IMG/VR virus record: IMGVR_UViG_2802429219_000011
Span: 1-18,574 of that record
Reading direction: 5' to 3' (one strand)
Length of the DNA stretch: 18,574 nucleotides
Source of the DNA: a virus
Lineage: Duplodnaviria > Heunggongvirae > Uroviricota > Caudoviricetes
The notes under the pieces: model-generated
What the model was told of the DNA's origin: nothing
Seen by the model: the letters and a program-made list of their open reading frames with translations, nothing else
The model's database searches: none
In this document: piece after piece, positions 1-14,394 of the stretch
Numbering within the stretch: position 1 is the first letter of the stretch
Layout: every line of letters begins with the position of its first letter
Made by a program: the position numbers and the translations under genes

Positions 1-451
<451 letters not shown>

Positions 452-720
452 GGTGCACCATCAAACTCTGTATGCTTTACCAGCCAGGATGCCAGAACCT
501 CTGCGCCCAGCACGCCGATAATGAACGACACCAGAAAATGCGCTGCCACACGCCAGGCTGAAAGCGCCTGCGGCATCGTTGCCACAAATAACGCCCCGGC
601 GAACGCACCAAACACAATCCCGAAATCCGTTCCGGTAAACAGCCCGAATACCGTCGCCCCGCCGAGCGCCGCAGCCGTGCCGGAACCGGATAAGGGTTCA
701 GACATACTTTTTCTCCTGTA

Positions 721-745
721 AATAAAAAAGGGCCACCAGCGGCCC
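721..745 (-). terminator. Intrinsic terminator closing the TerB-like moron
   Basis: GGGCC(730-734)-ACCAGC-GGCCC(741-745) hairpin, followed on the minus strand by UUUUUUAUU (complement of 721-729). Confidence 0.45.
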
Positions 746-797
746 GTAAAAAAACAACACCCCGTCAAAGGCACCCGCAGATGCCTTTTGTGTGATG

Positions 798-950
798 TTA
801 TTCAGATTTATGCAGTAAAGGCCGGAGCACGACCAGCGCCATCGCCACCAGCACACCATCTGCCAGCACCGACATCAGCCGTCCGGTGAAATCCACCGCC
901 ACTACCAGAAACAGCAGGATGGCAGCCAGCACAAGGCGCGCACTTTTCAC
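798..950 (-). CDS. Small hydrophobic protein (50 aa, GTG start overlapping the upstream stop)
   Basis: GTG at 950-948 overlaps the TerB-like stop (GTGA). Product VKSARLVLAAILLFLVVAVDFTGRLMSVLADGVLVAMALVVLRPLLHKSE is almost entirely hydrophobic. Below the ORF-track length cutoff; no independent SD. Confidence 0.3.
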   Translation of the reverse strand: MKSARLVLAAILLFLVVAVDFTGRLMSVLADGVLVAMALVVLRPLLHKSE

Positions 951-1372
951 AGGTACTGCTCCAGCGGTAGCTGAAGCGCCTGAGCAATTTTCTTGAGCTG
1001 TGCTTCTTCATCCGGACCAATGCCATCCTGGTCAGCGATATCCAGACACAGGCACAGCACATTAACTGCATCGTCTGTTCCTGCCACGTCAGCCAACTGA
1101 CGAAGGGCTTCAGCATTGGCAGAGCGCGGCGACGCTTCATAACGGGCGCGGATATTTGCACTCATTTGTGCAATCTCACCGGAGAACGGCGCAAAAGCAG
1201 GAAGTGCTGCAATGGTTTTCTCCAGCACCGCGATTTCTTTCGCGTCACAGGTGCCGTCAGCGTATGCAATGGAATACGCGCCCCAGACGGTCGCCTCCAC
1301 TGCATCGCGGTTCTCCATTTTCTTTACTTCAGTAATGGCCTTGCGGGTTTTCTTTTTGAAAATACCAAACAT
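947..1372 (-). CDS. TerB-like domain protein (tellurite-resistance TerB / DjlA-N-like fold), prophage moron
   Basis: ATG at 1372-1370 with AAGGAAAAG upstream. 141 aa with two ADG...D..E...L-type motifs (AYADGTCDAKEIAVLEKTI and DIADQDGIGPDEEAQLKKIAQAL) typical of TerB-family proteins. Family call is from motif recall only. Confidence 0.55.
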   Translation of the reverse strand: MFGIFKKKTRKAITEVKKMENRDAVEATVWGAYSIAYADGTCDAKEIAVLEKTIAALPAFAPFSGEIAQMSANIRARYEASPRSANAEALRQLADVAGTDDAVNVLCLCLDIADQDGIGPDEEAQLKKIAQALQLPLEQYL

Positions 1373-1620
1373 CGTGACTTTTCCTTTTAGTGGGTGAGCC
1401 TGCGCCCGGAGGGTGACCAGCCCACAGAGAAAGTCACACTGACCATCCCGTAAGCTCACCCCTGAAAGGCTCTGTGGTTTTTGATGTGCGCCGGGCGCGG
1501 CGCGAAGAAATGAAATAAGACTTACCTGAAATTAAGGTTAATCTGAGGATTTAAACCATTTTTAAAGCTTAGTAATATCAACTCGTCTCCTGTAGGAGGC
1601 TGATACTTATTATTCTTCAT

Positions 1621-1734
1621 GGACTTTGTCCCGCGGCTTTAATCCGACAGCCGCGCCATTTTTTCACCCTCTCGCAAATTGCTATCTAAAGGACTTTGTC
1701 CCACGAGTATTCCAGGATGCTCGTGTATTTTTTT
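1621..1734 (+). repeat. Two tandem units of a 12-bp motif (GGACTTTGTCCC), each followed by a hairpin and T-tract (terminator-like on the plus strand)
   Basis: Unit 1: GGACTTTGTCCC 1621-1632, hairpin GCGGCT/AGCCGC 1633-1654, T6 at 1659-1664. Unit 2: GGACTTTGTCCC 1691-1702, hairpin ACGAG/CTCGT 1703-1724, T7 at 1728-1734. Confidence 0.5.
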
Positions 1735-1749
1735 GTTTGATGCAGGAAT

Positions 1750-1773
1750 AAAAAAAACCGCCTGGTACGGCGG
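1750..1773 (-). terminator. Intrinsic terminator downstream of the tRNA pair
   Basis: CCGCC(1758-1762)-TGGTAC-GGCGG(1769-1773) hairpin, followed on the minus strand by a U8 run (complement of A-run 1750-1757). Confidence 0.5.
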
Positions 1774-2041
1774 TTAAGGATGTATTACCAGATTTTGATT
1801 AGTATATGATTAATCTCAATGTCACGTTTAGCGATGTTTACAACATCGGGATGATGCATCACCGACCCTGCCAGAGATATTGCAAATCTCTACCAATGAT
1901 GCACCATTCCGATGGTGTAAAAAAATAGCACTGGACTGCAATTGGTATCACTCATTACAGAACGGGACGTGGATAAAGAGGCCAAAAACCATCCCCACAT
2001 ATATAATGTGTCAGTGCATAACACAATCTCGCCTTACTACT

Positions 2042-2117
<76 letters not shown>

Positions 2118-2120
2118 ATA

Positions 2121-2196
<76 letters not shown>

Positions 2197-2258
2197 ACTG
2201 GTTCCTCAAGAGAAATAAAAATGACCGCGCTTTACATCCCCTTCGGAACCGGAGACCG

Positions 2259-2286
2259 ATATTAATAATACCAGCTCTCTTTTCAA
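2259..2286 (-). promoter_or_regulatory. Candidate sigma70 promoter for the tRNA pair
   Basis: On the minus strand TTGAAA (2286-2281), 16-nt spacer, TAATAT (2264-2259), followed by a GC-rich stretch, about 60 nt upstream of tRNA-Thr. Confidence 0.4.
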
Positions 2287-2432
2287 TGGAAAATCACATC
2301 AAGATTTGTAAATATACATATATGTTTTTATTTTTTATGAAATAAAGAAATTATTAAATGCATATTTAACGATTGTTTTTTATCTCAGTTACAATCTGAT
2401 TAATTTTTTCTTCCACACCATTTTGCGGACAT

Positions 2433-2459
2433 AAAAAAACCCGCTCGGCAGCGGGTTTT
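2433..2459 (-). terminator. Intrinsic terminator just downstream of the putative Q gene (tR'-like)
   Basis: CCCGCT(2440-2445)-CGGC-AGCGGG(2450-2455) hairpin, followed on the minus strand by U7 (complement of A-run 2433-2439). Confidence 0.5.
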
Positions 2460-2509
2460 GCTTGCTTTGCCATCATGTACAAAATCGGCAAAATATCAGA
2501 TTTGCACGA

Positions 2510-2538
2510 AATATATGCCTTTTAATCTACTTTTGCAA
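2510..2538 (-). promoter_or_regulatory. Candidate late promoter (pR'-like) overlapping the 3' end of the putative Q gene
   Basis: On the minus strand TTGCAA (2538-2533), 17-nt spacer, TATATT (2515-2510), about 50-70 nt upstream of the tR'-like terminator, mirroring the lambda pR'-6S-tR' arrangement. Confidence 0.35.
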
Positions 2539-3211
2539 CACTTTGCTTTGAAAATGCCGCCTTTTGTTCTGAGCGTGTTCTCATCACAAACAATAAAGCC
2601 TCACTATCCAGACGGTGGAAAATGTGTTTCATTGCAACCCAGTGACCAGTAAATGTTTTGGACCAGTTTTTTGTTGTTACTCCCGCCAGTAATGCCAGTT
2701 CCTGATATTCATAAGTTTCACGCCCAGCCAGCTCACTCTTCACATCCTGTGCCGCCAGCCAGATTAATTTTTTCAGGCGCTCCAGCGTTTTCCCTGCAAT
2801 TTTTCTGGTACCGGATTGGGCGTTAAATTCATTCCACACCCACTGTGTTATCGCAATCTGGTGTTCCCAGCAAATGCTGCCGCTGTAACACCACAGCAAC
2901 CAGGCTTTATGGTGCTCTTCAAGAGACAGAACTGCCCGTCGCCATGATGATGTCGAAAACTCAACCTGACTTACCAGAGGAATTGACGTCCCCTTTGCCA
3001 GCGATTGTTTCCCCGGGATTGGTGGATTATCCCGCGTGACCATTTTTCCAGTCACTTCATCGCGGTACCGGATTTTTTTACGCCTGTAACGCCCTGTATC
3101 GAACATGGCATTCTCCAGCCAGGCTTCAAGCTGGCCTTTTGTTGCCCCACTCAAATCGGCGGTGGCGATAATGAGCTGCTCACGAACAAACTGTAAATAC
3201 TGGTTATTCAT
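2522..3211 (-). CDS. Putative late-gene antiterminator Q (positional call; family not confirmed)
   Basis: ATG at 3211-3209 overlaps the rusA stop (ATGA). 229 aa, lying between rusA and the pR'/tR'-like elements and tRNAs, exactly where lambdoid Q sits. No Cys4 zinc motif is visible, so it is not lambda-type Q; the family is uncertain. Confidence 0.45.
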   Translation of the reverse strand: MNNQYLQFVREQLIIATADLSGATKGQLEAWLENAMFDTGRYRRKKIRYRDEVTGKMVTRDNPPIPGKQSLAKGTSIPLVSQVEFSTSSWRRAVLSLEEHHKAWLLWCYSGSICWEHQIAITQWVWNEFNAQSGTRKIAGKTLERLKKLIWLAAQDVKSELAGRETYEYQELALLAGVTTKNWSKTFTGHWVAMKHIFHRLDSEALLFVMRTRSEQKAAFSKQSVAKVD

Positions 3212-3567
3212 GCGCACTCCAGTTCTGTGATTTTTATCCCCAACCGACCACCAGGAACAGGCAGACCGCGCACAATATTAATTTCATCAAACTGCTCGTC
3301 GTCTATGAGTAGTCCCGCATGCGTCAGCGCATCCAGTAGTGCTTTCAGGATATTGTCCAAGTCACGACGGCGCTTATCCGGTGGCTCTGCAATAATCTTT
3401 ATCGCCAGCCTTCCGGACAGGTTTAATTTCAGTCGCTGCTGGCGAACAATAAGTGCCACATCCCGGCGATAACGCTCACCGGCTTTTGATACAAAATATG
3501 TGCTGCCACGACGTCGCCAGTAGGTGTTCACCGTCGGTGGGTAAGGCAAAACAAACTCTATACGCAT
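3208..3567 (-). CDS. rusA: RusA-family Holliday junction resolvase
   Basis: ATG at 3567-3565 with AGAGG upstream. Product contains PPTVNTYWRRRG ... PDKRRRDLDNILKALLDALTHAGLLIDDEQ ... GGRLGIKI, matching the RusA motifs (PPSNNRYY, DRRRRDLDN, DDAQ) of E. coli RusA. Confidence 0.85.
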   Translation of the reverse strand: MRIEFVLPYPPTVNTYWRRRGSTYFVSKAGERYRRDVALIVRQQRLKLNLSGRLAIKIIAEPPDKRRRDLDNILKALLDALTHAGLLIDDEQFDEINIVRGLPVPGGRLGIKITELECA

Positions 3568-3579
3568 CAGTAACCTCTT

Positions 3580-4635
3580 TTACCCGAGCACGCCGGTTGC
3601 AAAGGCGTGATCAAGAAAACGAAAAATTAAATCAACCTGGGAACCATGCTTTTCTTCGAACGCCAGCGGATCCGCATGAAGCTCGTTGTGATGCTCCCGA
3701 CACAGCGGTAGTGTGAAAATATCGTGGGATTTTGTTCCCATTCCGCCCTGACCATGACCAATCAGGTGATGGGGATCGTCGGCTGGCTTACCACAACACG
3801 CGCACGGCTGTGTCTTTACCCAGCGCGTGTATTTCTCGTTAACCCAGCGGCGACGTTTAGGTCGTTTCATGAAAGATTCCGGAGACTCCGGATCAACGGC
3901 AATGCTGACCACTGTCTTTTCCTGTGGTGGGTTCTGTTGCTGGTGCTGGTGGACGTGAGGCGGTAGCGCAATATTTTTTGTACGCTGCTTCAGTATACTG
4001 GTGGCGGTCTGTTCTCCCGGTATGATGTCGCTTTCGCGGTACACAGAGCGGATTTTTTCCTCTCGTACCCCCAGAGAGCGACGTAATACTGCCTCCGGTA
4101 GTGCGTCCGCCACCTGATTGCAGACCGCCCACCAAGATAATTCAGCCAGCGATAATTCCCGCTCCTGCGCACCGCTTATTGCGTGACGGATGACGTCAAT
4201 CATCCATGCTGTCAGGTTTTGTTGAGCAAGTTGCTCAAGTGATTCTGAGGTCTGGTCACGCAGTTGGTTGTCGCAGTGCCAGCACAACACCATCGCGCCG
4301 GTACCGTAACGATGTATGACGGTTTCGCTGTGATGGTAGTCACCATGAGGCCACTGGCAGGATTTAACATGACGCAGGAGCCAGTCAGACAGTGCACCAG
4401 CGCCGCCGGCAGCACGAATCACCCGCTCATCGCTGAAAAATGGCAGTAATGATTTATCCTCCGCCAACGGCTGGCGAACGGCAGGAGCAACTCCGGACGG
4501 CAGCCCGCGCATGCTTTTCGGTTCAGGCTCCACCAGCACACGCCCCTGCATAAACAAAGGCATCGCATCAGGACCGGGCCTGAAAAGTACAATCCCCAGG
4601 CGGTGAGCAATTTCAGGAGTCACTAATACCCTCAC
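3580..4635 (-). CDS. DUF968-type lambdoid prophage protein (YdfU-like) with a C-terminal HNH-like motif
   Basis: GTG start at 4635 immediately after the upstream stop (internal ATG alternatives exist). C-terminus PCACCGKPADDPHHLIGHGQGG ... LCREHHNELHA has a Cys pair plus HH...N...H spacing as in HNH-type zinc-binding nucleases. N-terminus resembles Qin YdfU as I recall it. Confidence 0.65.
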   Translation of the reverse strand: MRVLVTPEIAHRLGIVLFRPGPDAMPLFMQGRVLVEPEPKSMRGLPSGVAPAVRQPLAEDKSLLPFFSDERVIRAAGGAGALSDWLLRHVKSCQWPHGDYHHSETVIHRYGTGAMVLCWHCDNQLRDQTSESLEQLAQQNLTAWMIDVIRHAISGAQERELSLAELSWWAVCNQVADALPEAVLRRSLGVREEKIRSVYRESDIIPGEQTATSILKQRTKNIALPPHVHQHQQQNPPQEKTVVSIAVDPESPESFMKRPKRRRWVNEKYTRWVKTQPCACCGKPADDPHHLIGHGQGGMGTKSHDIFTLPLCREHHNELHADPLAFEEKHGSQVDLIFRFLDHAFATGVLG

Positions 4636-4636
4636 G

Positions 4637-4909
4637 TTACCTCCAGATGCGTTGCTGGAATGTGCGGGACGGACGCGGTGGGCGCTCGGAGTACGGCAGC
4701 CTGACGTAGATTATCCAGTGACGATAATCGAGGCTGAGGGCTTTCTTAATCTCGTATCCACGTCTGCGGTAGTTATGAATCAGCCATTCGGCCTGTTCTG
4801 CAGTGCATGGGTCATGCTGGTACCAGTCATATTTGAATGCATGAGAACGCCGATCGTGCCTGCTGGCACGATCGGTATCAGAATTGTGTAATTTGGTCTT
4901 GTGCGCCAT
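4637..4909 (-). CDS. Small basic hypothetical protein (Rem-like by position only)
   Basis: ATG at 4909-4907; stop lies 1 nt before the DUF968 GTG, suggesting translational coupling. 90 aa, Arg/His-rich; no motif recognised. Confidence 0.45.
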   Translation of the reverse strand: MAHKTKLHNSDTDRASRHDRRSHAFKYDWYQHDPCTAEQAEWLIHNYRRRGYEIKKALSLDYRHWIIYVRLPYSERPPRPSRTFQQRIWR

Positions 4910-5014
4910 CTGTTTTCTCTGCTGGCGCAGCAGGTGCCAGTTGTTCAGGCTGGCATGTGAATTGTAAACCAGAACACAGGAATAACACAAAGCCCACATC
5001 GGCGGGCTTGATTA

Positions 5015-5443
5015 TTAAGCTGAGTCCGGCGAATACCAGGGGAAATAAATATCGCTTAACGACGTGTGCTTAAGAACAGAGTCCACCGCCAATTTTAACG
5101 TCAACGACATGAAATTCTCAAAATACCATGAATTTTTCACAAAGAATTTTTCATCGATCAACTCTCCATTCATGATATCAAAGTCCGTAATCAGCTCCAT
5201 CTTTAGCTCAAAAGAGGGTTCTTCATCCCCGGCACCATCTCTATCGGGATACCCTTTTATCGATGGCGAAAATCCAATCCGGAACCAACAAGTACCATCA
5301 TCATCGCGCCCCGAAGAAAATTTAACTTCCTCGATCGAGACCTTAAAAAACCCTCCATCATCACTAGTGTTATCCTTGAAACTACTGGAAACAATATCGA
5401 AACCAGCATACTTAATATTTTGTAACATCAGTGACGCATCCAT
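5015..5443 (-). CDS. Acidic hypothetical protein (orf142), third gene of the hicAB block
   Basis: ATG at 5443 (AGAGG 11 nt upstream), or ATG at 5428-5426 overlapping the hicB stop (TGATG). Asp/Glu-rich with no motif I recognise. Lies in a visibly AT-rich stretch. An antisense ORF (5064-5489 +) also exists, so strand assignment rests on operon context. Confidence 0.45.
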   Translation of the reverse strand: MDASLMLQNIKYAGFDIVSSSFKDNTSDDGGFFKVSIEEVKFSSGRDDDGTCWFRIGFSPSIKGYPDRDGAGDEEPSFELKMELITDFDIMNGELIDEKFFVKNSWYFENFMSLTLKLAVDSVLKHTSLSDIYFPWYSPDSA

Positions 5444-5904
5444 CGCTCACCAGCCTCTTTCTTTTTTGTTCTTGCTGAAGGGGAAATGACATAACCAAAA
5501 GAGAATGCTTTTTCCCAAACGAATGTATCTGTCGTTTCTTCGCTTTCCGAATGAGAATGAACTTCTTTTTTGTCAGCAATCTTTTCTTCGATAGCTTTAC
5601 GCACATAATCATTAAGCGTCGTCTTATCCGCCATTGCAGCCAAAAACGCTTTCTTATGAAGATCGCGACCAATTCTGATGTTAAAAGTACCACTCATTGG
5701 TTTATCAGGAGATTTCCCTAACTGCTTGCATGTGTCGAGATAATCTGTAACAGCTTCTTCAAAAGCCGCCCTTAACCCATCCAGTGTTTCCGCTTCGTAG
5801 GTTACAACATCGTTTACGCACTGAATTTTCCCATGAAGTATGTTATCTTCAAGTGAAACCTCAATGCTGCCAAAATAACCTTTATAACTCAGCACATTAC
5901 TCAT
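5428..5904 (-). CDS. hicB: HicB-family antitoxin (HicB N-domain plus RHH-like segment) with an unusual ~45-aa C-terminal extension
   Basis: ATG at 5904-5902 lies inside the last codons of hicA. Product begins MSNVLSYKGYFGSIEVS ... YEAETLDGLRAAFEEAVTDYLDTC ... KPMSGTFNIRIGRDLHKKA, the canonical HicB pattern (YKGY-GS ... P-KP-SG-F-R----LH-K). The ORF is also open from an upstream ATG at 5919. Confidence 0.75.
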   Translation of the reverse strand: MSNVLSYKGYFGSIEVSLEDNILHGKIQCVNDVVTYEAETLDGLRAAFEEAVTDYLDTCKQLGKSPDKPMSGTFNIRIGRDLHKKAFLAAMADKTTLNDYVRKAIEEKIADKKEVHSHSESEETTDTFVWEKAFSFGYVISPSARTKKKEAGERWMRH

Positions 5905-6145
5905 AACTATCAATCTCATCCAAAAGATTTTTCACTTCTTTAAGCACATATCCTTTAACAATATTGCCAGGATGTGGGCAATGAAAAGCCACAAGCCTTC
6001 CATTAGCATTGGTAAACTTCCTTCTTGAGCCTGAACCGGTAAGCATTTCGAAACCATAATGCCCAAGCAACGTCACGAGTTCATCCCATGTAAAATCCTT
6101 TGGAAGCTGATTCAGACGCCACCTCAACTTCTCTTTTTTGCTCAT
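5897..6145 (-). CDS. hicA: HicA-family mRNA interferase toxin
   Basis: ATG at 6145-6143. Product contains GFEMLTGSGSRRKFTNANGRLVAFHCPHPGNIVKGYVLKEVKNLL, matching the HicA/YcfA-like core (G-x-GS-x-R-x-F ... HxPHPG ... LL). Confidence 0.75.
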   Translation of the reverse strand: MSKKEKLRWRLNQLPKDFTWDELVTLLGHYGFEMLTGSGSRRKFTNANGRLVAFHCPHPGNIVKGYVLKEVKNLLDEIDSYE

Positions 6146-6171
6146 TTAAAGTATATCCCTTCCCCCACCAA

Positions 6172-6190
6172 TAGCAACTAACAATCAGTT
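6172..6190. promoter_or_regulatory. Palindrome upstream of hicA, candidate HicB operator
   Basis: GCAACT (6172-6177), 7-nt spacer, AGTTGC (6185-6190), about 30-45 nt upstream of the hicA start; RHH antitoxins usually bind such palindromes. Confidence 0.3.
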
Positions 6191-6373
6191 GCAAGCTCAT
6201 CGCAATAAAGAAGCATAAGAACCCTGTACCTAATTCATAACAACAGAAAACACATGCGAGCATGAAAATGTTACAATAATATTAAAGCCACTTGCTAGTA
6301 AGGTTAAGTGTGGGTGCGTTGAGGATGCCTGACACATCAGGGGTGGCGAGGGATTTCTCCCCCGCCGGGTCTC

Positions 6374-6529
6374 TTACTCCTCAGGTTCGTAAGCTGTGAA
6401 GACAGCGACCTCCGTCTGGCCGGTTCGGATTCGTACCTCGCAGAGGTCTTTCCTCGTTACCAGTGCCGTCACTATGACGGTTAAACAGATGACGATCAGG
6501 GCGATTAACATCGCCTTTTGCTGCTTCAT
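6374..6529 (-). CDS. hokD: Hok-family type I toxin (HokD/RelF-like)
   Basis: ATG at 6529-6527. Product MKQQKAMLIALIVICLTVIVTALVTRKDLCEVRIRTGQTEVAVFTAYEPEE: single TM helix plus the conserved Hok C-terminus (CE-R ... EVA-F-AYE). Matches my recollection of HokD. Confidence 0.85.
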   Translation of the reverse strand: MKQQKAMLIALIVICLTVIVTALVTRKDLCEVRIRTGQTEVAVFTAYEPEE

Positions 6530-6739
6530 AGCCTGCTTCTCCTTGCCTTTCGGCACGTAAGAGGCTAACCTACGTGTGCAAGTCATAGATATGGCCTCAG
6601 ATTAATGTTAAGCGTCTTGCAGGACGCGTAATGTTAACTGGGGCTTTTCTCTATCTGCCGTTGGTGTTCATGCCTGAGACAGATAGCCTCAAGCACCCGC
6701 AGCCATTCTACTTAACTATCCTTTTCCCGCAAATCGTTT

Positions 6740-6823
6740 TTATCCCCAGCGGCAAATCGAATACACCACCAGCGCCACCGCCAGTGCAATTCCTACCGTG
6801 GTGAATGCCTCAGGCCAGGTCAT
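6740..6823 (-). CDS. Candidate 27-aa hydrophobic peptide upstream of the hok leader
   Basis: ATG at 6823-6821 with a GGAGG Shine-Dalgarno 7 nt upstream. Product MTWPEAFTTVGIALAVALVVYSICRWG is a single predicted TM segment. Too short for the ORF track. Confidence 0.25.
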   Translation of the reverse strand: MTWPEAFTTVGIALAVALVVYSICRWG

Positions 6824-6910
6824 TGATTCACCTCCTGCGGTGGTTCCGGTAGCGGCATCCAGTGAGTTGAGCTCTCTACTTCGATGCCGTCTTTGTCCAC
6901 AAAAGCCATC

Positions 6911-7348
6911 TTATTCCCGCCACGAATGGGGCAAAAACACCTTATCCCAGGAACCGGGGAATACATTCCCGAGATCATCGCGAAGAATCACATCGCAGTA
7001 TTCCGCAGGAACTGCATCACTACAGCTTATCCAACCATCTGGAGCTACCGGCGCTGGTTGGGCTGTATAAAGCGGTGTTATATCTGCCCGAAGACCACAC
7101 GTCTCATACAATCGCACATACTGTTCAACTTCTGCTTTGTCAGAATACGTAACCGTAAACGTATCAAACTCATTGTCAATTCGAGTGAAAGTCACCTTCC
7201 ATGCCACCGGCTCTGCTTCCAGCGATGCCAGTGCAATTTTGAATAACTCACCCTCTACCTGTGCCATCCCTGAATTTGGGTGGCATTTCGCAATCGCTAT
7301 TTTTAATTTAGCTTCTTCGATTAATTGTTCTTTGGTTAATTCAGTCAT
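6911..7348 (-). CDS. Lambdoid early protein with a C-terminal DUF551-like segment
   Basis: ATG at 7348-7346 with AAGGA upstream. C-terminal PDGWISCSDAVPAEYCDVIL resembles the DUF551 W-I-S ... LP signature seen in many prophage proteins. Confidence 0.5.
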   Translation of the reverse strand: MTELTKEQLIEEAKLKIAIAKCHPNSGMAQVEGELFKIALASLEAEPVAWKVTFTRIDNEFDTFTVTYSDKAEVEQYVRLYETCGLRADITPLYTAQPAPVAPDGWISCSDAVPAEYCDVILRDDLGNVFPGSWDKVFLPHSWRE

Positions 7349-7349
7349 T

Positions 7350-7568
7350 TCAGTTTTCCTTATATGGATTAATTTTATTGTGTAGTGTGTTGAACGACGC
7401 CCATACCACGTCGTTATACAATTCAATAACTGGCTCAATTATTTTGCCGATTCCCCATACCAGAATTAACGGGGATATCGGTATCATCAACACGATAAAC
7501 AGAATGAGAAACAGGAATTCTGTTGCTCTGCTCTTTCGCGGATAATTTTTCCTGAATAGTGTAGTCAT
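7350..7568 (-). CDS. Small membrane protein (72 aa)
   Basis: ATG at 7568-7566 with GGAG upstream. Hydrophobic core FLFLILFIVLMIPISPLILVWGIG. Its stop lies 1 nt from the next start. Confidence 0.45.
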   Translation of the reverse strand: MTTLFRKNYPRKSRATEFLFLILFIVLMIPISPLILVWGIGKIIEPVIELYNDVVWASFNTLHNKINPYKEN

Positions 7569-7569
7569 A

Positions 7570-7767
7570 TCACTCCCATTTAATTTGCTTAGAACCGTGA
7601 TTTCTCCAGCGGTTTTGTGCCGCACTTCTACGTCGCCTGACACTGTAAAAATGCGTTGGTAACCACCTGGCAAGGCCAGAAGGCGCATAACGAACAACAA
7701 GTCGATTTGAGATGCGGATAAGCTGCCCGGGCTTTGCAGTAAGCAGTTTTGCTTTACGGTTTTTCAT
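7570..7767 (-). CDS. Small basic hypothetical protein (65 aa)
   Basis: ATG at 7767-7765 with AGGAG 9 nt upstream. Arg/Lys-rich. Start overlaps the stop of the upstream 54-aa ORF (ATGA). Confidence 0.45.
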   Translation of the reverse strand: MKNRKAKLLTAKPGQLIRISNRLVVRYAPSGLARWLPTHFYSVRRRRSAAQNRWRNHGSKQIKWE

Positions 7768-7928
7768 CGCTTTGATCTCCTGCGTTTCTTTGCTGCACGT
7801 CGTGCCGCTGCAATACCGGTATGGCGCTTTGGTGCCGGGATAATATTGTCAGCCATCATGACATGTGGAATAACTGTTAATGACGACGCCCAAAACCGCA
7901 CCAGATACGGCAATAAACAATTTTCCAT
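7764..7928 (-). CDS. Candidate 54-aa protein with a strongly basic C-terminus
   Basis: ATG at 7928-7926 with GAGGTG 9 nt upstream. Product MENCLLPYLVRFWASSLTVIPHVMMADNIIPAPKRHTGIAAARRAAKKRRRSKR. Stop overlaps the next start. Below the ORF-track cutoff. Confidence 0.3.
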   Translation of the reverse strand: MENCLLPYLVRFWASSLTVIPHVMMADNIIPAPKRHTGIAAARRAAKKRRRSKR

Positions 7929-8096
7929 TCGCATTTCTCACCTCAACTGACCTGAATATCAGTAATTGTTTGTTGCAACCATTCTTTAGTTAATTCTGCC
8001 ATTTTTATTACCGCCCTTTCGGGCGGCCTCCTGATGTTCTGAGGGTGCAGGAATCCCTCCGGTTAAGGATTAAATTTTTAACAGTGCTAAATTTAA

Positions 8097-8453
8097 TTAT
8101 TCAGTTCTTGATTTTGTCGCCCTGCGTATCCGCACTTTCGCGTTACGCTCAATCTGAATTAGCTTTTCTATATTTTTCCGCCGTTCCTGTTCCTCCTGGC
8201 GCAATAACCTTACATCATCTGCCAGCCTGGTTTCTCTTTTAGCCACAGAGAGCATCCAGTCAAATGGCTCCACAACTGCACCGCAGATTTTACAGCGGAC
8301 CTGACGCTCTTTTTCGTCAACCCGGACAGAGGCGTGATGGCAATATGGTCTTTCCGATGGCTCATAAAGAAAATTAACTTGATTACGTGGGTCATCCTCT
8401 TTTACCGGAAATAAAACGATATTGCTTAACTCATCTTCTGGTTTTATTTCCAT
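8097..8453 (-). CDS. Hypothetical nin-region protein with a Cys/His cluster and a charged coiled-coil-like tail
   Basis: ATG at 8453-8451 with strong SD AAGGAGAGGAG. CHH ... CKIC spacing suggests a small zinc ribbon; the C-terminus is E/R/K-rich. Confidence 0.55.
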   Translation of the reverse strand: MEIKPEDELSNIVLFPVKEDDPRNQVNFLYEPSERPYCHHASVRVDEKERQVRCKICGAVVEPFDWMLSVAKRETRLADDVRLLRQEEQERRKNIEKLIQIERNAKVRIRRATKSRTE

Positions 8454-8510
8454 GCTCCTCTCCTTTGATGCGAATGCCAGCGGTAATTGAAACCTGATAG
8501 CTAATTTCAC

Positions 8511-8939
8511 TCACAGTACCGCCTCCTGAAAATTACCCTGATAGAAAGCCAGTACACGCTGCATAGCTTCGCTCTTCCGGCACTCGCGACAGATTATGTT
8601 CAGATGTCTGTCGTAGCGGCGTATTTCTCCGTCTGGTAACTTTCGAATCAGTGTCTGGTCAGTTGTTTTCTCCGGTGTCTTACGCCATTCACGATACGCC
8701 TGCTCTGATGCAAAAACACCGTATTCCCCGGACATGTATAAATCACCACAAGCCAGTACATCCACAAGGCAGCGTCGGACCGAATGCCAGCCAGCTCCCG
8801 TCGCTCTCTCCAGTTGCGACATCGTCATGCGTTCATTTTTGCGTACCAACCCGATAATTCGTGCCTTCAGCTCTTCCCGCTGTTCGGGTGTAAAAACTTT
8901 TGCCACAAGCCCTCCTGAAAAATCACCTTCACAATTCAT
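8511..8939 (-). CDS. ren: Ren-like protein
   Basis: Start ATG overlaps the P-like stop (ATGA), as for lambda P/ren. C-terminus ICRECRKSEAMQRVLAFY parallels lambda Ren FKECRQSAAMKRVLAVY as I recall it. Confidence 0.55.
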   Translation of the reverse strand: MNCEGDFSGGLVAKVFTPEQREELKARIIGLVRKNERMTMSQLERATGAGWHSVRRCLVDVLACGDLYMSGEYGVFASEQAYREWRKTPEKTTDQTLIRKLPDGEIRRYDRHLNIICRECRKSEAMQRVLAFYQGNFQEAVL

Positions 8940-9601
8940 ACAAAACCAGCTGCCTTCCGGCGTTCATACTCCCGTTTCAGCAACTCAATTGGTGTTGGCC
9001 CCGACGGGCGTTTGGGTGCCGCCAGTTGTCGCCGGACTGGCGGAACGCTCAGGCCGTTACTAACATGCTTTGCCCATTTCGTCAGTTGCCGTTCTGCAAG
9101 CCGTTTTAACTCCCCTTCGGTCATCTGCCGCTCAATCCCCTTTGAACGCATCTCGAGACAAATGTGATACAGCACAGGCTGAGGCCACGGATATTTATCG
9201 CTTCCGTCGTATCGCCAGGACTCATTGCGCCAGCGGCGGTACTCCTCCATCACAGCATCCACCGTCAGACCAAATGGATTTGCCCCACTCTCCAAAATCA
9301 GCGCCACAAACTCAGCCAGGTCCGGAGGCCATGTTTCACCCGCCCGGCAGCGATCCATGCACTGGCGGCAGACCTGCCGGATTTGCTGCTCAGTCATCGC
9401 GCCAATCTGTGCAATCCAGAGCTTCGAAGGTGCGGCCCCGTTCTTCTGGGTCCAGCGGTTCGAATAAACCTCCCCCATGAGTTCCCACAACTTCCACGCC
9501 GTTTCCGTCGCGGATAAATCCGTTTTCACGTTCCCACTGCTCACGTGCTGCCCGAATTTCCTGAACTGCCCGTGATGCGGTGCCACCTGGCGTTGCTGCA
9601 T
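8936..9601 (-). CDS. Lambda P-like replication protein (helicase loader)
   Basis: ATG at 9601-9599 with GGGGG upstream; 221 aa. The block WPPDLAEFVAL ... YPWPQPVLYHICLEM ... MTEGELKRLAERQL parallels lambda P (FLPSPGQFVAW ... YPWKSNAHYWLV ... LTDAELRRKAADEL). Its first ~70 codons overlap the O-like frame. Confidence 0.7.
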   Translation of the reverse strand: MQQRQVAPHHGQFRKFGQHVSSGNVKTDLSATETAWKLWELMGEVYSNRWTQKNGAAPSKLWIAQIGAMTEQQIRQVCRQCMDRCRAGETWPPDLAEFVALILESGANPFGLTVDAVMEEYRRWRNESWRYDGSDKYPWPQPVLYHICLEMRSKGIERQMTEGELKRLAERQLTKWAKHVSNGLSVPPVRRQLAAPKRPSGPTPIELLKREYERRKAAGFV

Positions 9602-10430
9602 GGTTTACCCCCTTGCTGACTGGTTTAACCTGCGCCCTGACGTGATTTACGTGACGGGCGAATTTCTGCTCCCACTGAATCTGCGTAAATACTTTCCCCT
9701 CCGCTGCCCAGTAGTCCCGGAAGGCGGCAAGTTCAGCAGGTGTAAATTCTGTCTCCGGCAAAGCCATCCCCCACAACGCAGCCCGTCGTCGAAAATCCCG
9801 TGACGGATACCAGCTATCGGTCATCGGAAATTTTCCGATGGGTTCGCTCAGGCCATCCAGGAATACAGGGGGTGCTGCCTGTAACGACAAAACTTCCTGC
9901 TCACTGGTCGGAGCACTCTCGCGTGCGTTATGTGTGGGGGTTAGATCTTTGGGTTCCTTTGGGTTCCGTGATCCGTTTTTGGGTGTCTTTGATGGAAAAT
10001 TTGGGTGTCTTTGGTTATTTTCCATGCAGTTAAGAGTTCCGTTTTTGGGTCTGTTTTGTGCTGAAACATAACCATTTTCGGTACTGTTTTTATTAACAGC
10101 ACCAATTTTACCCACCTTTAAAGACTCCCGTTTTTGGGTGTATTCAGGCTCGGCAACACTTTCTTCTACACCGATAAGTCGGTACACCACAATTTGCTTT
10201 GTTCTGCCTTTTCTCTCACCGGTATCAACAATTAACCCAATCTCCATCAGGTGTCGTAAGCTGTCCTGCACAGTCTTTTTGTTCAGTTCCGTTACTTCTG
10301 CCAGGGCAGATACAGACGGGTATGCACACAAATCGGCACCGCACATATCAGCAAGCCAGGTCAATACTGACTTACTGGATGAACTGCCGGTTTTCACCTT
10401 TTTAGCCCATCGTAGTGCATCGATACTCAT
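9390..10430 (-). CDS. Phage replication initiator (O-like): N-terminal winged-HTH domain and DnaT-like C-terminal region
   Basis: The ORF track starts at a TTG (10505); I prefer the ATG at 10430-10428 (MSIDALRWAKKV...) preceded by GGGG. The N-terminus matches the phage replication-protein HTH pattern (LTWLADMCGADL ... PSVSALAEVTELNKKTVQDSLRHL). Contains the iteron array. Confidence 0.65.
   Translation of the reverse strand: MSIDALRWAKKVKTGSSSSKSVLTWLADMCGADLCAYPSVSALAEVTELNKKTVQDSLRHLMEIGLIVDTGERKGRTKQIVVYRLIGVEESVAEPEYTQKRESLKVGKIGAVNKNSTENGYVSAQNRPKNGTLNCMENNQRHPNFPSKTPKNGSRNPKEPKDLTPTHNARESAPTSEQEVLSLQAAPPVFLDGLSEPIGKFPMTDSWYPSRDFRRRAALWGMALPETEFTPAELAAFRDYWAAEGKVFTQIQWEQKFARHVNHVRAQVKPVSKGVNHAATPGGTASRAVQEIRAAREQWERENGFIRDGNGVEVVGTHGGGLFEPLDPEERGRTFEALDCTDWRDD
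9948..10146. repeat. Iteron array (putative origin of replication) inside the O-like gene
   Basis: TTTGGGT core at 9948, 9958, 9978, 10000, 10044 and 10133. Longer copies CCGTTTTTGGGTGTCTTTG (9973-9991), AAATTTGGGTGTCTTTGG (9997-10014), TCCGTTTTTGGGTCTGTTTTG (10038-10058), CCCGTTTTTGGGTGTATTC (10128-10146). A moderately AT-rich stretch lies at 10061-10120. Confidence 0.6.
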
Positions 10431-10953
10431 ACGAACCCCAGACAGACATTTGTTTATCTGCAAAATAATGTTGGTATTGCTGACGATACGCATGCTTGAA
10501 AGCAATAGCTTTTTCTATAAGCTCGTCAGTCTCACGTTCCACAACAGCGGGATCCGCAAAAAGCAGCCCGGACTCCACCACATCGCCATATTCTTTGTTT
10601 AACCCGGCGATCATGTACGTAATGCTTTTTCCGTCAGTAATTTCACAATACAACCTGAAATCACTGATCCGGATAGCCTCCATAATTGCCGGAATCAACG
10701 CCGTGAATTTTTCACGCTTATCCCTGGTGTCAATAGCTTTCCAGCGTTCGAATATCTTCACTCTGTTAACGCCAAGCGCCCGTTGATCAACCGCGCCATC
10801 ATCAAATGTGACACGTTGAACATCGATGTTCGGGCGTTCTTTCAGAGTCCAGAATGCCTCTGTGATTAATATCGTCGCCTGCTCCTGCGTCATTCCTGGT
10901 CGACATACCCAGGCATCCAGAGCCTCGCGAGCCTGCTCAGGAGTGAATATCAT
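10402..10953 (-). CDS. Hypothetical early protein between cro-like and O-like genes (cII/YdaT position)
   Basis: ATG at 10953-10951 overlaps the last 17 nt of the cro-like gene. 183 aa, no motif recognised with confidence. Confidence 0.5.
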   Translation of the reverse strand: MIFTPEQAREALDAWVCRPGMTQEQATILITEAFWTLKERPNIDVQRVTFDDGAVDQRALGVNRVKIFERWKAIDTRDKREKFTALIPAIMEAIRISDFRLYCEITDGKSITYMIAGLNKEYGDVVESGLLFADPAVVERETDELIEKAIAFKHAYRQQYQHYFADKQMSVWGSYEYRCTTMG

Positions 10954-11209
10954 TGTTCACCGCCAGTGATTCATTCGACATACACTTATTTCCACAAGGT
11001 AGTCCATCTGTTGGGTTGGGATAAATGTCAGGGCGAATTTCATGCGGGGTAACTTCCCACTTCATTAACTGGCATAACGGAATTACCTGCTTTGGGGGAA
11101 CGCCAAAGCTAAACCATTGCCAAACGGTCTGTTGAGCGACCCCCATATAGCGACCTATTTCAGCTTGAGTGTATTTCTGCCTAATTTTTTCGCGAGTGCT
11201 ATCTAGCAT
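10937..11209 (-). CDS. Cro-like HTH regulator (YdaS-type)
   Basis: ATG at 11209-11207 with strong SD AGAGGAGGG. HTH segment TQAEIGRYMGVAQQTVWQW. Divergent from the repressor gene. Confidence 0.7.
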   Translation of the reverse strand: MLDSTREKIRQKYTQAEIGRYMGVAQQTVWQWFSFGVPPKQVIPLCQLMKWEVTPHEIRPDIYPNPTDGLPCGNKCMSNESLAVNNDIHS

Positions 11210-11244
11210 TTTGCCCTCCTCTGAAAACTATAAACAAAGCCTAC

Positions 11245-11279
11245 AATAAAAAACTGTACGCAATCAACAGTTTTTTATT
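11245..11279. promoter_or_regulatory. Operator: perfect 13-bp inverted repeat with 9-bp spacer in the divergent cro/repressor control region
   Basis: AATAAAAAACTGT (11245-11257), spacer ACGCAATCA, ACAGTTTTTTATT (11267-11279). Confidence 0.6.
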
Positions 11280-11317
11280 GTGATGCTTTTAACAGTATTT
11301 ACCTGTAAAATTGAATA

Positions 11318-11719
11318 ATGATGAACGCCCTAGAAGTATCTATGTACAGAATCAGCAAGCTTCTTCAGGAAACTGGATGGAGCCAGGCTGAACTTGCCCG
11401 TAGAATTGGTGTGACACAACAAACAGTTCAACAATGGGTCAGCGGTAAGGCTACGCCTAAAGCCTCAAGTTTGGATAAACTGGTTGAGGTTACAGGGCAT
11501 CCATTGCATTGGTTTTTATTGCCTCCTGATGAGGGGGAGCAAATTTTCACCCCTGACACAATGAAAATTGGTCCTCGCCAACGCGAACTGCTCCAAGCTT
11601 TTAGTGCGTTTCCAGAGGAAGACCAAGAAAAAATGCTTCAAGAAATCAAAGACAAGAAAAAATCAATGGAAGAAACTATTGCCCGATGGTTGGCGGCACA
11701 AAAAAGCCGCCGGGCGTGA
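11318..11719 (+). CDS. Prophage repressor, XRE-family HTH (DicA/PaaR2-like)
   Basis: HTH segment SQAELARRIGVTQQTVQQWVSG. C-terminal region (SAFPEEDQEKMLQEIKDK) parallels DicA (NALPESEQDTQLAEMRAR) as I recall it. Divergent from cro-like and directly upstream of the antitoxin/toxin pair. Confidence 0.7.
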   Translation: MMNALEVSMYRISKLLQETGWSQAELARRIGVTQQTVQQWVSGKATPKASSLDKLVEVTGHPLHWFLLPPDEGEQIFTPDTMKIGPRQRELLQAFSAFPEEDQEKMLQEIKDKKKSMEETIARWLAAQKSRRA

Positions 11720-11746
11720 CCACTGTACAAGAAGAGGAGTTATGCC

Positions 11747-11938
11747 ATGAGTACAGCCCTTTCTCCGATAGTTTCAGAATTCGAAACTACCGAACAAGAA
11801 AACAGTTACAACGAATGGTTGCGCGCTAAAGTGACGTTAAGCCTTGCAGACCCTCGCCCCGCAATTCCACATGACGAGGTAATGGCTGAAATGGAAAATC
11901 TTATTGCTCAAATTGCTGCAACTAACAGGAGCGAGTAA
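11747..11938 (+). CDS. Small antitoxin (PaaA2-like, 63 aa)
   Basis: Stop overlaps the ParE start (TAATG). Size, position between a DicA-like regulator and ParE, and acidic composition fit the paaR2-paaA2-parE2 arrangement reported in E. coli O157 prophages. Confidence 0.55.
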   Translation: MSTALSPIVSEFETTEQENSYNEWLRAKVTLSLADPRPAIPHDEVMAEMENLIAQIAATNRSE

Positions 11939-12225
11939 TGTTACCCATTTTATGGCTACCATCTGCTCGCGATGATTTGCGTCAGGTCGTAACCTATATT
12001 GCTAAGGAAAACATTCCTGCAGCACGCAGACTAAAAATACGTATTGAAACGTCTGTTTTAACCCTCTCTGAGCACCCATATCTATATCCGCTAAGTGATC
12101 GAGTATCCGGTTTGCGGGAACTTGTGGTTCACCCTAATTATATCGTGTTGTACCGAGTAGCAACTTCAAGCATTGAAATTGCGAATATTGTGCATGCCCG
12201 TCGACAATTTCCCTTCTCTATCTGA
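11938..12225 (+). CDS. parE: ParE/RelE-superfamily toxin
   Basis: Product MLPILWLPSARDDLRQVVTYIAKEN ... LSEHPYLYP ... GLRELVVHPNYIVLYRVATSSIEIANIVHARRQFP fits the ParE pattern (W-P-A-DL---YI ... G-REL-V--NY---YR ... I-I--I-H-R). Confidence 0.8.
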   Translation: MLPILWLPSARDDLRQVVTYIAKENIPAARRLKIRIETSVLTLSEHPYLYPLSDRVSGLRELVVHPNYIVLYRVATSSIEIANIVHARRQFPFSI

Positions 12226-12241
12226 GCCGAACAATTTCCAT

Positions 12242-12266
12242 ACTCCCTCATTCGAGGGAGTTTTTT
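12242..12266 (+). terminator. Intrinsic terminator after parE
   Basis: ACTCCCTC(12242-12249)-ATTC-GAGGGAGT(12254-12261) hairpin followed by T6 (12261-12266). Confidence 0.55.
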
Positions 12267-12278
12267 GTCTAAGACAAC

Positions 12279-12320
12279 AATTAAAAACTGTTGACACAAA
12301 ACAGTTTTTAATTGTAGATT
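12279..12320 (+). promoter_or_regulatory. Second operator copy overlapping a strong candidate promoter for the dicB-type operon
   Basis: AATTAAAAACTGT (12279-12291), 9-bp spacer, ACAGTTTTTAATT (12301-12313). Consensus -35 TTGACA (12291-12296) sits inside the operator, with TAGATT -10 at 12315-12320 (18-bp spacer). Confidence 0.55.
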
Positions 12321-12496
12321 ATTTTTACCAACCCACCCCGCCCCACAGAATGCAGGGCAATACTTCGAGTTACCAGGCAGTGGTCAGGGGTTAAGTAGCC
12401 AGCCCGAGGCGTAAGAACATGACGGCAGGGTTCAACTTTAACTATGCAGCAGGTTTTTGTTCCGCTACCCCGGCGTTAAGGGGAAATGAGGTCAAC

Positions 12497-12652
12497 ATGG
12501 ATACTATCGATCTTGGCAACAACGAATCTCTGGTGTACGGCGTGTTTCCCAACCAGGACGGCACGTTCACCGCGATGACGTATACCAAAAGCAAAATGTT
12601 TAAAACCGAAAATGGTGCCCGTCGCTGGCTGGAAAGAAACTCAGGTGAGTGA
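12497..12652 (+). CDS. ydfA: YdfA-like small protein (51 aa)
   Basis: ATG at 12497 with GAGG 5 nt upstream. Product MDTIDLGNNESLVYGVFPNQDGTFTAMTYTKSK... matches my recollection of Qin YdfA. The ORF-track start (12419) is an upstream in-frame extension. Confidence 0.65.
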   Translation: MDTIDLGNNESLVYGVFPNQDGTFTAMTYTKSKMFKTENGARRWLERNSGE

Positions 12653-12653
12653 T

Positions 12654-12782
12654 ATGGATTTCGACACAATCATGGAAAAGGCTTACGAAGAATACTTCGA
12701 AGGCCTTGCCGAAGGCGAAGAAGCTCTCAGCTTCAGTGAGTTTAAACAGGCGCTTTACAGTTCGGCAAAATCTATCGACTAA
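12654..12782 (+). CDS. ydfB: YdfB-like small acidic protein (42 aa)
   Basis: ATG at 12654, 1 nt after the ydfA-like stop. Product MDFDTIMEKAYEEYFEGLAEGEEALSFSEFKQALYSSAKSID. Below the ORF-track cutoff. Confidence 0.55.
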   Translation: MDFDTIMEKAYEEYFEGLAEGEEALSFSEFKQALYSSAKSID

Positions 12783-12793
12783 CGGGGTTATAG

Positions 12794-13432
12794 ATGGAAT
12801 TTAAAGAGTTACCAAAAGAAATCAAGGTGATTGCAGCGCATGCACTTTGTCAACGTCTGTCCGAAGTTGAATTAGAATCTGCAACGAAGAAAGACATTGA
12901 TAATATGGCTCGTAATGTGCGCGATGCGTTTACCGGATTGTATTTCTGTTCGTCTGTAAATAAACACGACTCAGAGAGTGTGGCAAAGAAAATTGCAGAA
13001 ACGACAGCGCAAAACATCAATACGAAACCAATGAAAGAAGAAATTGATCAGTTTGCTCATGATGCTGGTTTAAAAAACAAGAAAGAAAAATCGCCATACG
13101 CGGGAAATATGTTTGTTTATGACAATCTCATCAGAATCCGTGGCAAGATTCCGGCTGAATACCTGACAAAAGTTCATCAGGCATTGCTTAAGAACCTGGA
13201 AACAGAAGTATTTGATGGCAACGCCAACGGATCCTTCAGAGTGTCAACTCTTGCGAAAGAATGGGATACAGAGAATAGCTGGAATGTTGCGACGTGGATG
13301 TTCAGTAACAGAGCTTCAGCCCTGGAAGCAGCAACATGTATTTGTGACCTGTTAAAAGCAGACCACAAATACAACCTTGATGTATACAGCTATATTTACG
13401 CTGAACACTATCCGCTCTGGATTGACTGGTAA
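12794..13432 (+). CDS. Hypothetical 212-aa protein, AT-rich cargo gene in the ydfC position
   Basis: ATG at 12794 preceded by GGGGTTATAG. No motif recognised. Visibly more AT-rich than its neighbours. Stop abuts the stop of the convergent 69-aa gene. Confidence 0.6.
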   Translation: MEFKELPKEIKVIAAHALCQRLSEVELESATKKDIDNMARNVRDAFTGLYFCSSVNKHDSESVAKKIAETTAQNINTKPMKEEIDQFAHDAGLKNKKEKSPYAGNMFVYDNLIRIRGKIPAEYLTKVHQALLKNLETEVFDGNANGSFRVSTLAKEWDTENSWNVATWMFSNRASALEAATCICDLLKADHKYNLDVYSYIYAEHYPLWIDW

Positions 13433-13642
13433 TTACAGGGCGGTGCCAGCAGGGCCACGACGACCAACACCACGATTGTAATCAATGATGCCATTATAAA
13501 GCACATTGTTTAATTTATCGTCAAATGCTGATTTCGTGAGCCTTAACTCTGAATGGTTTTTTAATAACCCTGATTGCCTGAGTTGATTAACCAGACATTC
13601 AATCTGTTTTTCAATAAGCGGATGTATTGGTCTGTTTGGCAT
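13433..13642 (-). CDS. Hypothetical 69-aa protein, convergent with the 212-aa gene
   Basis: ATG at 13642-13640 with GGAGG 5-6 nt upstream (the ORF-track start at 13654 lies inside the SD). Product MPNRPIHPLIEKQIECLVNQLRQSGLLKNHSELRL...; no family recognised. Confidence 0.45.
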   Translation of the reverse strand: MPNRPIHPLIEKQIECLVNQLRQSGLLKNHSELRLTKSAFDDKLNNVLYNGIIDYNRGVGRRGPAGTAL

Positions 13643-13964
13643 TTTATCCTCCATTGAGGTTCTGGGTTAAAAATGGAGACCAACACGCTGCCACGTGTAG
13701 TCGTGCGCCGGACACGGATAAGAATCCGGCACTGACAGTTTACTGAAAGGATATATCCCTGAAAAGTCAGGGCATAACGCGAAAGCGCACGGCGAAGTTC
13801 TTCTGTCTGTACGGTGTCGTTAAATTTAATTCGACCGTGCGCTTCCGGTTGTGGCAATCCGCGAAATGGCGCGGCGGTAAGTATGGCGGGGTTATCCTTA
13901 CCCCATTAGTGGCACCGGGTTGTCAGGTTGACCATACGCCTGAGTGACAACCCCGCCACAACAA

Positions 13965-14392: not shown

Positions 14393-14394
14393 CA

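Follow-up and report, generated by a model that had tools for sequence, protein, structure and literature searches.

We analyzed an 18,574-nucleotide (nt) stretch of viral DNA (Caudoviricetes; IMG/VR record IMGVR_UViG_2802429219_000011, positions 1 to 18,574; the whole stretch is here called the window) and found that a block of three genes within it is likely to be a toxin-antitoxin-chaperone (TAC) operon of the HicAB type, which a lambdoid prophage carries as cargo. The block consists of hicA, hicB, and a third gene, here called hicC, which RefSeq names "hypothetical protein." Because the third protein has a predicted SecB fold, the block falls in the known TAC class and is not a new tripartite type. 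A first-pass annotation of the window had suggested that the genes might form a tripartite toxin-antitoxin (TA) module, and this reading is supported by the order, co-occurrence, and co-inheritance of the tail of HicB and the third gene coupled to it. The features of the operon are as follows.

5897 to 6145, minus strand: hicA, 82 amino acids (aa); Pfam HicA_toxin, 5.4e-10; phrog_8887 "toxin," 4.6e-26
5428 to 5904, minus strand: hicB, 158 aa; Pfam HicB, 1.3e-17, at residues 55-105
5569 to 5904, minus strand: hicB core, residues 1-112, comprising the N-terminal HicB domain and the ribbon-helix-helix (RHH) DNA-binding domain
5428 to 5568, minus strand: hicB tail, residues 113-158 plus the stop codon, a 46-residue C-terminal extension resembling a chaperone-addiction (ChAD) region
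5015 to 5428, minus strand: hicC, 137 aa from the ATG at 5428 (alternative ATG at 5443, 142 aa); presumed dedicated chaperone with a predicted SecB fold

The hicA and hicB genes overlap, as had been noted, and the overlap is 8 nt (ATGAGTAA); the products of both have Pfam matches. HicA belongs to a subfamily marked by an invariant GSRRKF motif and an HxPHP motif (residues 37-46 and 54-60). HicB extends well beyond its recognizable domains: phrog_9151 ("HicB-like antitoxin," 2e-48) reaches residues 1-118 only, and with the RHH domain ending at about residue 112, a tail of 46 residues remains, in agreement with the roughly 45 residues first suggested. In an AlphaFold2 model of HicB, block-mean predicted local distance difference test (pLDDT) values of 79-95 cover residues 1-110, which form a beta-sheet, a helix, and the RHH helices 80-92 and 97-109. 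Over residues 119-152 the pLDDT falls below 50 and the model has no secondary structure; the tail is predicted to be disordered.

The tail in the window is rich in aromatic residues and carries an EVHSH motif, an aromatic patch (FVWEKAFSFGYVI), a conserved Trp near its end, and a terminal His. When 44 tail-bearing HicB homologues were aligned, a K-E-hydrophobic-H-x-H stretch was found directly after the RHH domain in 33, a Trp among the last 16 residues in 33, and a His among the last three residues in 36, and many of these homologues also have a hydrophobic or aromatic patch. Because these short motifs recur across the 44 homologues, the tail can be placed in its conserved frame, and the possibility that it is a frameshift artifact was rejected. 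The exception is P0055, one E. coli hicB copy, in which the tail lies in an alternative frame (…KKFILIRKAKKRQIHSF…), the frame of a spurious window open reading frame (ORF) at 5412-5693. The P0055 tail is probably frameshifted, which would uncouple HicB from its chaperone. We also observed that three features persist in otherwise variable tails: E-V-H-x-H just behind the RHH domain, a Trp located some 4-16 residues before the end, and a His at the C terminus. The His is kept even in loci that lack an overlap between hicB and the following gene, and it may be a degron or a chaperone anchor.

The third gene had been described as a 142-aa ORF joined to hicB by a TGATG stop/start overlap. The overlap is real, but the two statements refer to different starts: 142 aa are read from the ATG at 5443, while the 1-nt overlap with the hicB stop belongs to the ATG at 5428, which gives 137 aa. 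In every one of the 46 family representatives, the alignment begins at position 6 of the 142-aa form, and the 1-nt overlap (TGATG or TAATG) is seen again in diverged loci as well as in phage mEp234. For these reasons, the ATG at 5428 is most likely the real start. The protein is acidic, as had been noted (isoelectric point 4.31, compared with 4.26 for E. coli SecB; 25 D/E versus 13 K/R). Its family is small. A word-index homology search returned only 3-7 relatives, and an exhaustive search of 1.84 billion representatives gave 46 clusters at 50% identity, with full-length members of 133-151 aa. The gene is under strong purifying selection, with a ratio of nonsynonymous to synonymous divergence (dN/dS) of 0.09 at a dS of 1.15.

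Profile searches with the third protein gave no informative match: Pfam, NCBIfam, and PADLOC returned nothing, and its PHROG match is only to a family of unknown function. Structure prediction was more telling. An AlphaFold2 model built on the family alignment (pLDDT 91.3; predicted TM score 0.83) has four long beta-strands followed by a short helix and a long helix. With this model as a Foldseek query against the Protein Data Bank (PDB), the top 19 matches were all SecB or Rv1957. The best structural match is specifically a TAC chaperone. In a viral structure library, the top match was annotated as SecB. Together, these models indicate that the third protein is likely to adopt a SecB fold.

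Three independent lines, namely gene order, co-occurrence, and co-inheritance, led us to conclude that the third gene and the tail of HicB form a pair. Recurrence of the three-gene order, which had been suggested as a check, holds down to low identity: in about ten lineages, third-gene homologues at 23-42% identity immediately follow the gene for an extended HicB of 147-188 aa, which itself has hicA on its upstream side. These loci are found in Vibrio (L005), Cronobacter (L009), three metagenomic lineages (L006-8, L011-12, and L013-14), another locus of the genome collection (L117), phage mEp234 (L136), and a Rahnella plasmid; in L013, hicA was not called as a gene, yet it is present. The tail and a third gene also occur together, and tail length divides the loci cleanly. 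Among the matches listed, 24 of the 113 loci with a HicB core match have a tail of at least 35 aa, and 22 of these 24 have a coupled downstream ORF of 124-174 aa. At tails of 13 aa or fewer, again among the matches listed, only L111 may have a coupled third ORF.

Co-inheritance was evident when the window was compared with a second E. coli copy (L002). Here hicA and the hicB core are 99-100% identical, and identity drops sharply to about 80% from about position 5565 (HicB codon ~113) through the end of the third gene. Within hicB alone, the core is 99.7% and the tail 79.6% identical, placing a recombination breakpoint at about 5565. Across four E. coli copies, the identities of tail and third gene follow one another closely (98.6/99.5, 98.6/99.5, 96.4/96.4, and 79.6/79.5%), with hicA and the hicB core remaining at least 99.2% identical.

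A further locus touches on the range of antitoxins that this family accompanies. In L010 (positions 2-761, on a contig too short to reveal a toxin gene), a distant member of the HicC family, P0049, overlaps the end of an Xre-type helix-turn-helix (HTH) protein that has a C-terminal extension and is not HicB. This suggests that the HicC chaperone family also serves HigA-like antitoxins; TAC chaperones are known to have partners from several families of antitoxins.

Across phyla, other tail-bearing HicBs of the subfamily defined by the shared operator are likewise followed by coupled ORFs (124-174 aa), in the family comprising L018, L113, L122, and L083, and in L021, L053, L054, L035, L079, and L123. 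For these third ORFs there was no match to the HicC family, to Pfam SecB, or between one of their families and another, and hhalign comparisons of these third-gene families with HicC and SecB were not significant. We tentatively raise the idea, which we would not yet favor, that the tail and chaperone form a swappable sensor cassette that recombines apart from an invariant "warhead" of HicA and the HicB core, and that the dissimilar third genes may also be cryptic SecB-fold chaperones. If this were true, TAC systems would be far commoner and more diverse than censuses based on SecB similarity report.

Upstream of hicA lies a palindrome that recurs in front of related operons.

6174 to 6192, no strand assigned: operator palindrome GCAACT-N7-AGTTGC, 29-47 nt upstream of the hicA ATG; the window form of the consensus TGCAACTA-N5-TAGTTGCA

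The palindrome had been recognized in the first reading of the window, at a position that was off by 2 nt. It occurs once in the window, against a chance expectation of 0.04 matches. All seven of the diverged three-gene loci, whose surrounding DNA does not align, have it at the same offset (-45 to -50) relative to the hicA ATG, and it is also found upstream of hicA in phage mEp234. A scan of a genome collection with the 16-nt consensus yielded at least 120 loci (L015-L134). Among the matches listed, 106 of 120 have a hicA-hicB pair of the same subfamily directly beside the palindrome, and the linked pairs come from Actinomycetota, Bacillota, Bacteroidota, cyanobacteria, and Proteobacteria. We infer that the palindrome is a conserved operator bound by the RHH domain of HicB. 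Many of the palindrome-linked loci are two-gene systems in Collinsella, and an operator conserved so widely is unusual. A promoter-like site at 6177-6150 (TTGCTA-16-TATACT) is probably not the promoter, because its -10 element reaches to within 5 nt of the hicA ATG and so runs into the spacer between the Shine-Dalgarno sequence and the ATG.

The operon sits in the window as a sharply bounded insert.

4996 to 6301, no strand assigned: whole cassette, 1,306 bp, inserted relative to the empty slot between hokD and the nin region
4990 to 5009, minus strand: terminator-like hairpin downstream of the third gene, straddling the left junction at 4995/4996

An insertion between hokD and the nin-type genes had been proposed, and comparison with an empty site now delimits it. 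The flanks of the window align to an empty locus (L003), in which 9 nt separate them, and to a locus carrying phd-doc as cargo (L004). Because both alignments give the same junctions, 4995/4996 and 6301/6302, the insert is 4996-6301. The visual impression that the block is richer in AT than its surroundings was borne out by calculation (40.1% GC versus 54.0% and 47.8% in the flanks), and no other 1,306-nt stretch of the window has a lower GC content. The block is rare: only 13 of 5,426 complete E. coli genomes carry it, while the flanks alone match in more than 3,000. On one side its neighbor is hokD (Pfam HOK_GEF, 2.9e-23); on the other are a small gene of unknown function and then DUF968, RusA, and Q. 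In one genome (L135), a second cassette, encoding a hypothetical protein and an ImmA/IrrE peptidase, is stacked in the same slot. The slot just downstream of hokD is a cargo exchange site with fixed junctions, empty in L003, filled by phd-doc in L004, by the HicAB cassette in the window, and by the HicAB and ImmA/IrrE cassettes in L135.

The cassette is set into the terminator downstream of hokD, and the empty-site junction falls inside that hairpin. In the window, the hairpin at 4990-5009 holds the position of this terminator, now after the third gene. The first-pass annotation had called it weak, with a tail poor in U; we found an 8-bp stem of -13.6 kcal/mol (z = -3.9 versus shuffles) with an interrupted U-tract, and it is the sole terminator-like site within 4600-6700.

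The same three genes occupy two unrelated positions in E. coli prophages, the hokD slot and, in L002, the gap between cI and N, and the stretch in common with the L002 copy is 5008-6223. Considering all the copies, the positions seen (the hokD slot, the cI-N gap, and a site next to the integrase) are typical slots for prophage cargo; in lambda, rexAB occupies the gap between cI and N. Because the junctions are precise and the slot is fixed and shared with other cargo, we concluded that the three genes travel as one unit, consistent with the earlier description of a self-contained moron.

We then set the block against the features that define TAC systems. The genes run in the order toxin, antitoxin, presumed chaperone, are co-oriented, and are coupled by overlaps of 8 nt and 1 nt; diverged loci show this order and these overlaps as well. 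HicAB is one of the type II families known in TACs, along with HigBA and MqsRA. The antitoxin has a C-terminal extension of 46 residues that is absent from two-gene homologues, and this extension is predicted to be disordered and to contain the aromatic and hydrophobic residues typical of a ChAD. The third protein has a predicted SecB fold. As expected of a HicAB system, the antitoxin model contains the helices of an RHH DNA-binding domain, and a palindromic operator lies upstream.

A number of observations weigh against this assignment. Membership of the SecB family by sequence is the sole TAC-related feature, among those tested, that the block lacks. Neither the window protein nor any of 43 family members matched Pfam SecB (PF02556) at E values up to 1; neither the single sequence nor either of two profiles, one of them built from 43 family members, matched any PDB sequence; and an hhalign comparison with E. 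coli SecB gave a nonsignificant probability of 0.2. With sequence similarity to SecB undetected, the SecB assignment rests on the predicted fold and the genomic context, and the model has no counterpart of the SecB C-terminal helix after residue 119. Doubt also attaches to the toxin. The canonical catalytic His of the GSH motif is missing from HicA, in which Arg41 aligns with the His of 1WHZ (a weak alignment, E = 0.88), and because Arg replaces this His, the toxic activity and chemistry of HicA are assumed. Finally, PADLOC-DB 2.0 had no matching model for HicA or the third protein, and our search of the literature found no experiment on this third-gene family. For HicB, the PADLOC-DB 2.0 models gave only a weak AbiEii match (0.0025). 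The Arg is characteristic of the subfamily: in a simple pattern count among the matches listed, GSR was the commonest form of the motif, occurring in 81 of 114 operator-linked HicAs, and His55 and His58 (FHCPHP) are conserved instead of the GSH His. The GSRRKF trait is also found in two-gene relatives and is not specific to TACs.

HicAB-type TACs have been listed previously (PMC5105189, PMC3581621), and TACs contain only RHH-type HicBs (PMC3581621). One such system, Mmet-TAC of Methylomonas methanica MC09 (HicA Metme_2813, HicB Metme_2812, and a SecB-TA chaperone; Bordes et al. 2016, PMC5105189), has been shown experimentally to be chaperone dependent, with its ChAD at HicB residues 119-159. 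The block in the window is a further example of this already known and once validated kind. It shares with Mmet-TAC the HicAB type, the gene order, and an RHH-type HicB, and, going by the published ranges, its tail (113-158) resembles the Mmet-TAC ChAD (119-159). It differs in that the Mmet-TAC chaperone was found by its similarity to SecB, whereas our third protein matches no SecB profile, and in that Mmet-TAC has been validated by experiment, whereas the system in the window is known from sequence and models. The Mycobacterium tuberculosis HigB1-HigA1-Rv1957 system (5MTW; Guillet et al. 2019, PMC6377645) is more remote. It is a HigBA system with an HTH antitoxin rather than a HicAB system with an RHH antitoxin, its chaperone Rv1957 shares 7% sequence identity with our third protein, and it is chromosomal in mycobacteria, whereas the system in the window is prophage cargo.

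Closer in setting are the E. coli anti-phage TACs HigBAC (strain NT1F31), CmdTAC, and MqsRAC, as described in the preprint of Mets et al. (bioRxiv 10.1101/2024.02.24.581848) and in the work of Vassallo et al. as cited there. Like the system in the window, they are borne by prophages in E. coli, and their ChADs use spaced aromatic residues, which can be compared with the aromatic patch and conserved Trp of our tail. In these systems the chaperone is the phage sensor: TAC chaperones sense phage proteins through competition with the ChAD, and lambda gpV, for instance, competes with the aromatic motifs of the tail for HigC (bioRxiv 10.1101/2024.02.24.581848). The toxins differ (HigB, the ADP-ribosyltransferase CmdT, and MqsR there, HicA here), as does the C-terminal end of the antitoxin, which is a His in the window family and an Ala-Ala or Val-Ala ClpX degron in the E. 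coli anti-phage TACs.

The same three-gene family is carried by the lambdoid phages mEp234, mEp506, and HK106 (PV340539.1, PV340542.1, and JQ182732.1). Over the full length, the third proteins of mEp234 and the window share 31.9% identity, and both systems have the 1-nt hicB/hicC overlap and the operator palindrome. In mEp234 the genes stand between cI and N, as in L002, so that this phage has a distant allele in a different slot from that of the window. GenBank entries PV340539.1 and PV340542.1 label the mEp234 and mEp506 homologues "HicC chaperone," which is a database annotation only; a literature search for HicC, mEp234, mEp506, and the GenBank accessions found no paper describing them. 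Two-gene HicAB systems of Collinsella, Lachnospiraceae, and Bacteroidota have the same HicA subfamily (GSRRKF), HicB core, and TGCAACTA-N5-TAGTTGCA palindrome. Unlike the HicB of the window, their HicB (109-125 aa) has nothing beyond the RHH domain, and a coupled third gene is absent.

By analogy with characterized TACs (PMC5105189; PMC6377645; bioRxiv 10.1101/2024.02.24.581848), the cassette may depend on its chaperone and act against phages. HicB dimers bound to the palindrome would keep the operon repressed. The tail would act as a ChAD, making HicB unstable or prone to aggregation, and the SecB-like HicC would hold the tail through its aromatic residues, allowing HicB to neutralize HicA. 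Were HicC titrated away, for example, by a protein of an invading phage that mimics the tail, HicB would fail, and the freed HicA would cleave RNA and arrest the infected cell, leaving the lysogen population protected. The prophage positions of the cassette (the hokD slot shared with phd-doc, the cI-N gap, and the integrase end) support such a role in lysogen protection.

The same three-protein machine could serve another purpose, such as prophage addiction and stabilization or a stress-responsive switch of growth, and we consider this unlikely but worth weighing. TACs were first described as stress-responsive modules (PMC3581621), as in the first proposal for the M. tuberculosis TAC, and models from defense libraries did not match the cassette. 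Selfish maintenance of the prophage would also fit the presence of two more TA systems in the window, the adjoining hokD and a set resembling paaR-paaA2-parE. Set against these points, the copies in mEp234 and L002 lie in the cI-N gap, which houses rexAB in lambda, and the swapping of tail and chaperone behind an invariant toxin fits a changeable sensor better than plain addiction. In addition, MqsRAC, CmdTAC, and HigBAC, the E. coli TACs that have been tested to date, all defend against phages (bioRxiv 10.1101/2024.02.24.581848).

The role of the third protein can be questioned as well. It could be part of the module without being a chaperone of the tail, serving as a second antitoxin or adaptor that binds HicA, or as a co-regulator, with the SecB-like fold reused. 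Its lack of sequence similarity to SecB would allow this, and the third gene is a regulator in other three-part TA systems, for example, of the paaR-paaA-parE type represented in the window. We nonetheless regard it as improbable: the best structural match is a TAC chaperone specifically, the presence of the third gene tracks the HicB tail and not HicA, tail and third gene recombine as one unit apart from hicA and the hicB core, and the distant homologue paired with a different antitoxin family accompanies a protein that also bears a C-terminal extension. The names given to the ORF and its family, "hypothetical protein" in RefSeq and a PHROG family with no assigned function, might even suggest an unrelated passenger, or no real gene, beside an ordinary two-gene hicAB. 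This seems scarcely credible for an ORF with the purifying selection reported above, 46 family clusters of uniform length, a confidently predicted fold, and a place next to an extended HicB, with the 1-nt overlap conserved, in about ten lineages. The passenger reading was rejected because the gene tracks the HicB tail and is under purifying selection.

Outside the cassette, the window contains a second three-part TA set at 11318-12225 on the plus strand, beside the prophage regulatory region.

11318 to 11719, plus strand: HTH repressor-like gene
11747 to 11938, plus strand: PaaA2-type antitoxin; Pfam PaaA2, 2.6e-21
11938 to 12225, plus strand: ParE toxin, 1.4e-14

We take this set to resemble the paaR-paaA-parE systems of E. 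coli O157 prophages; in RefSeq, the homologous genes are named RelB and RelE/ParE. The late region of the prophage carries two tRNA genes on the minus strand, tRNA-Gly(TCC) and tRNA-Thr(TGT), at 2043-2196. They adjoin positions 2201-2600, which at a GC of 0.34 are the 400 nt richest in AT within the window.

Although HicAB-type TACs are already known, three aspects of the block are of some value: its chaperone family escapes detection by SecB profiles, tail and chaperone have been swapped naturally behind an invariant toxin, and the operator is shared across phyla. The predicted SecB fold turns a seemingly ordinary hicAB into a three-part TAC, and surveys based on SecB profiles miss at least this chaperone family. 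The operator TGCAACTA-N5-TAGTTGCA provides a search handle for this HicAB subfamily across phyla. The natural alleles, in which the toxin and antitoxin core are identical and the tail and chaperone differ by about 20%, offer a ready test of the specificity between tail and chaperone, and the same alleles would test whether the range of phages sensed is determined by the chaperone, as it has been shown to be in HigBAC.

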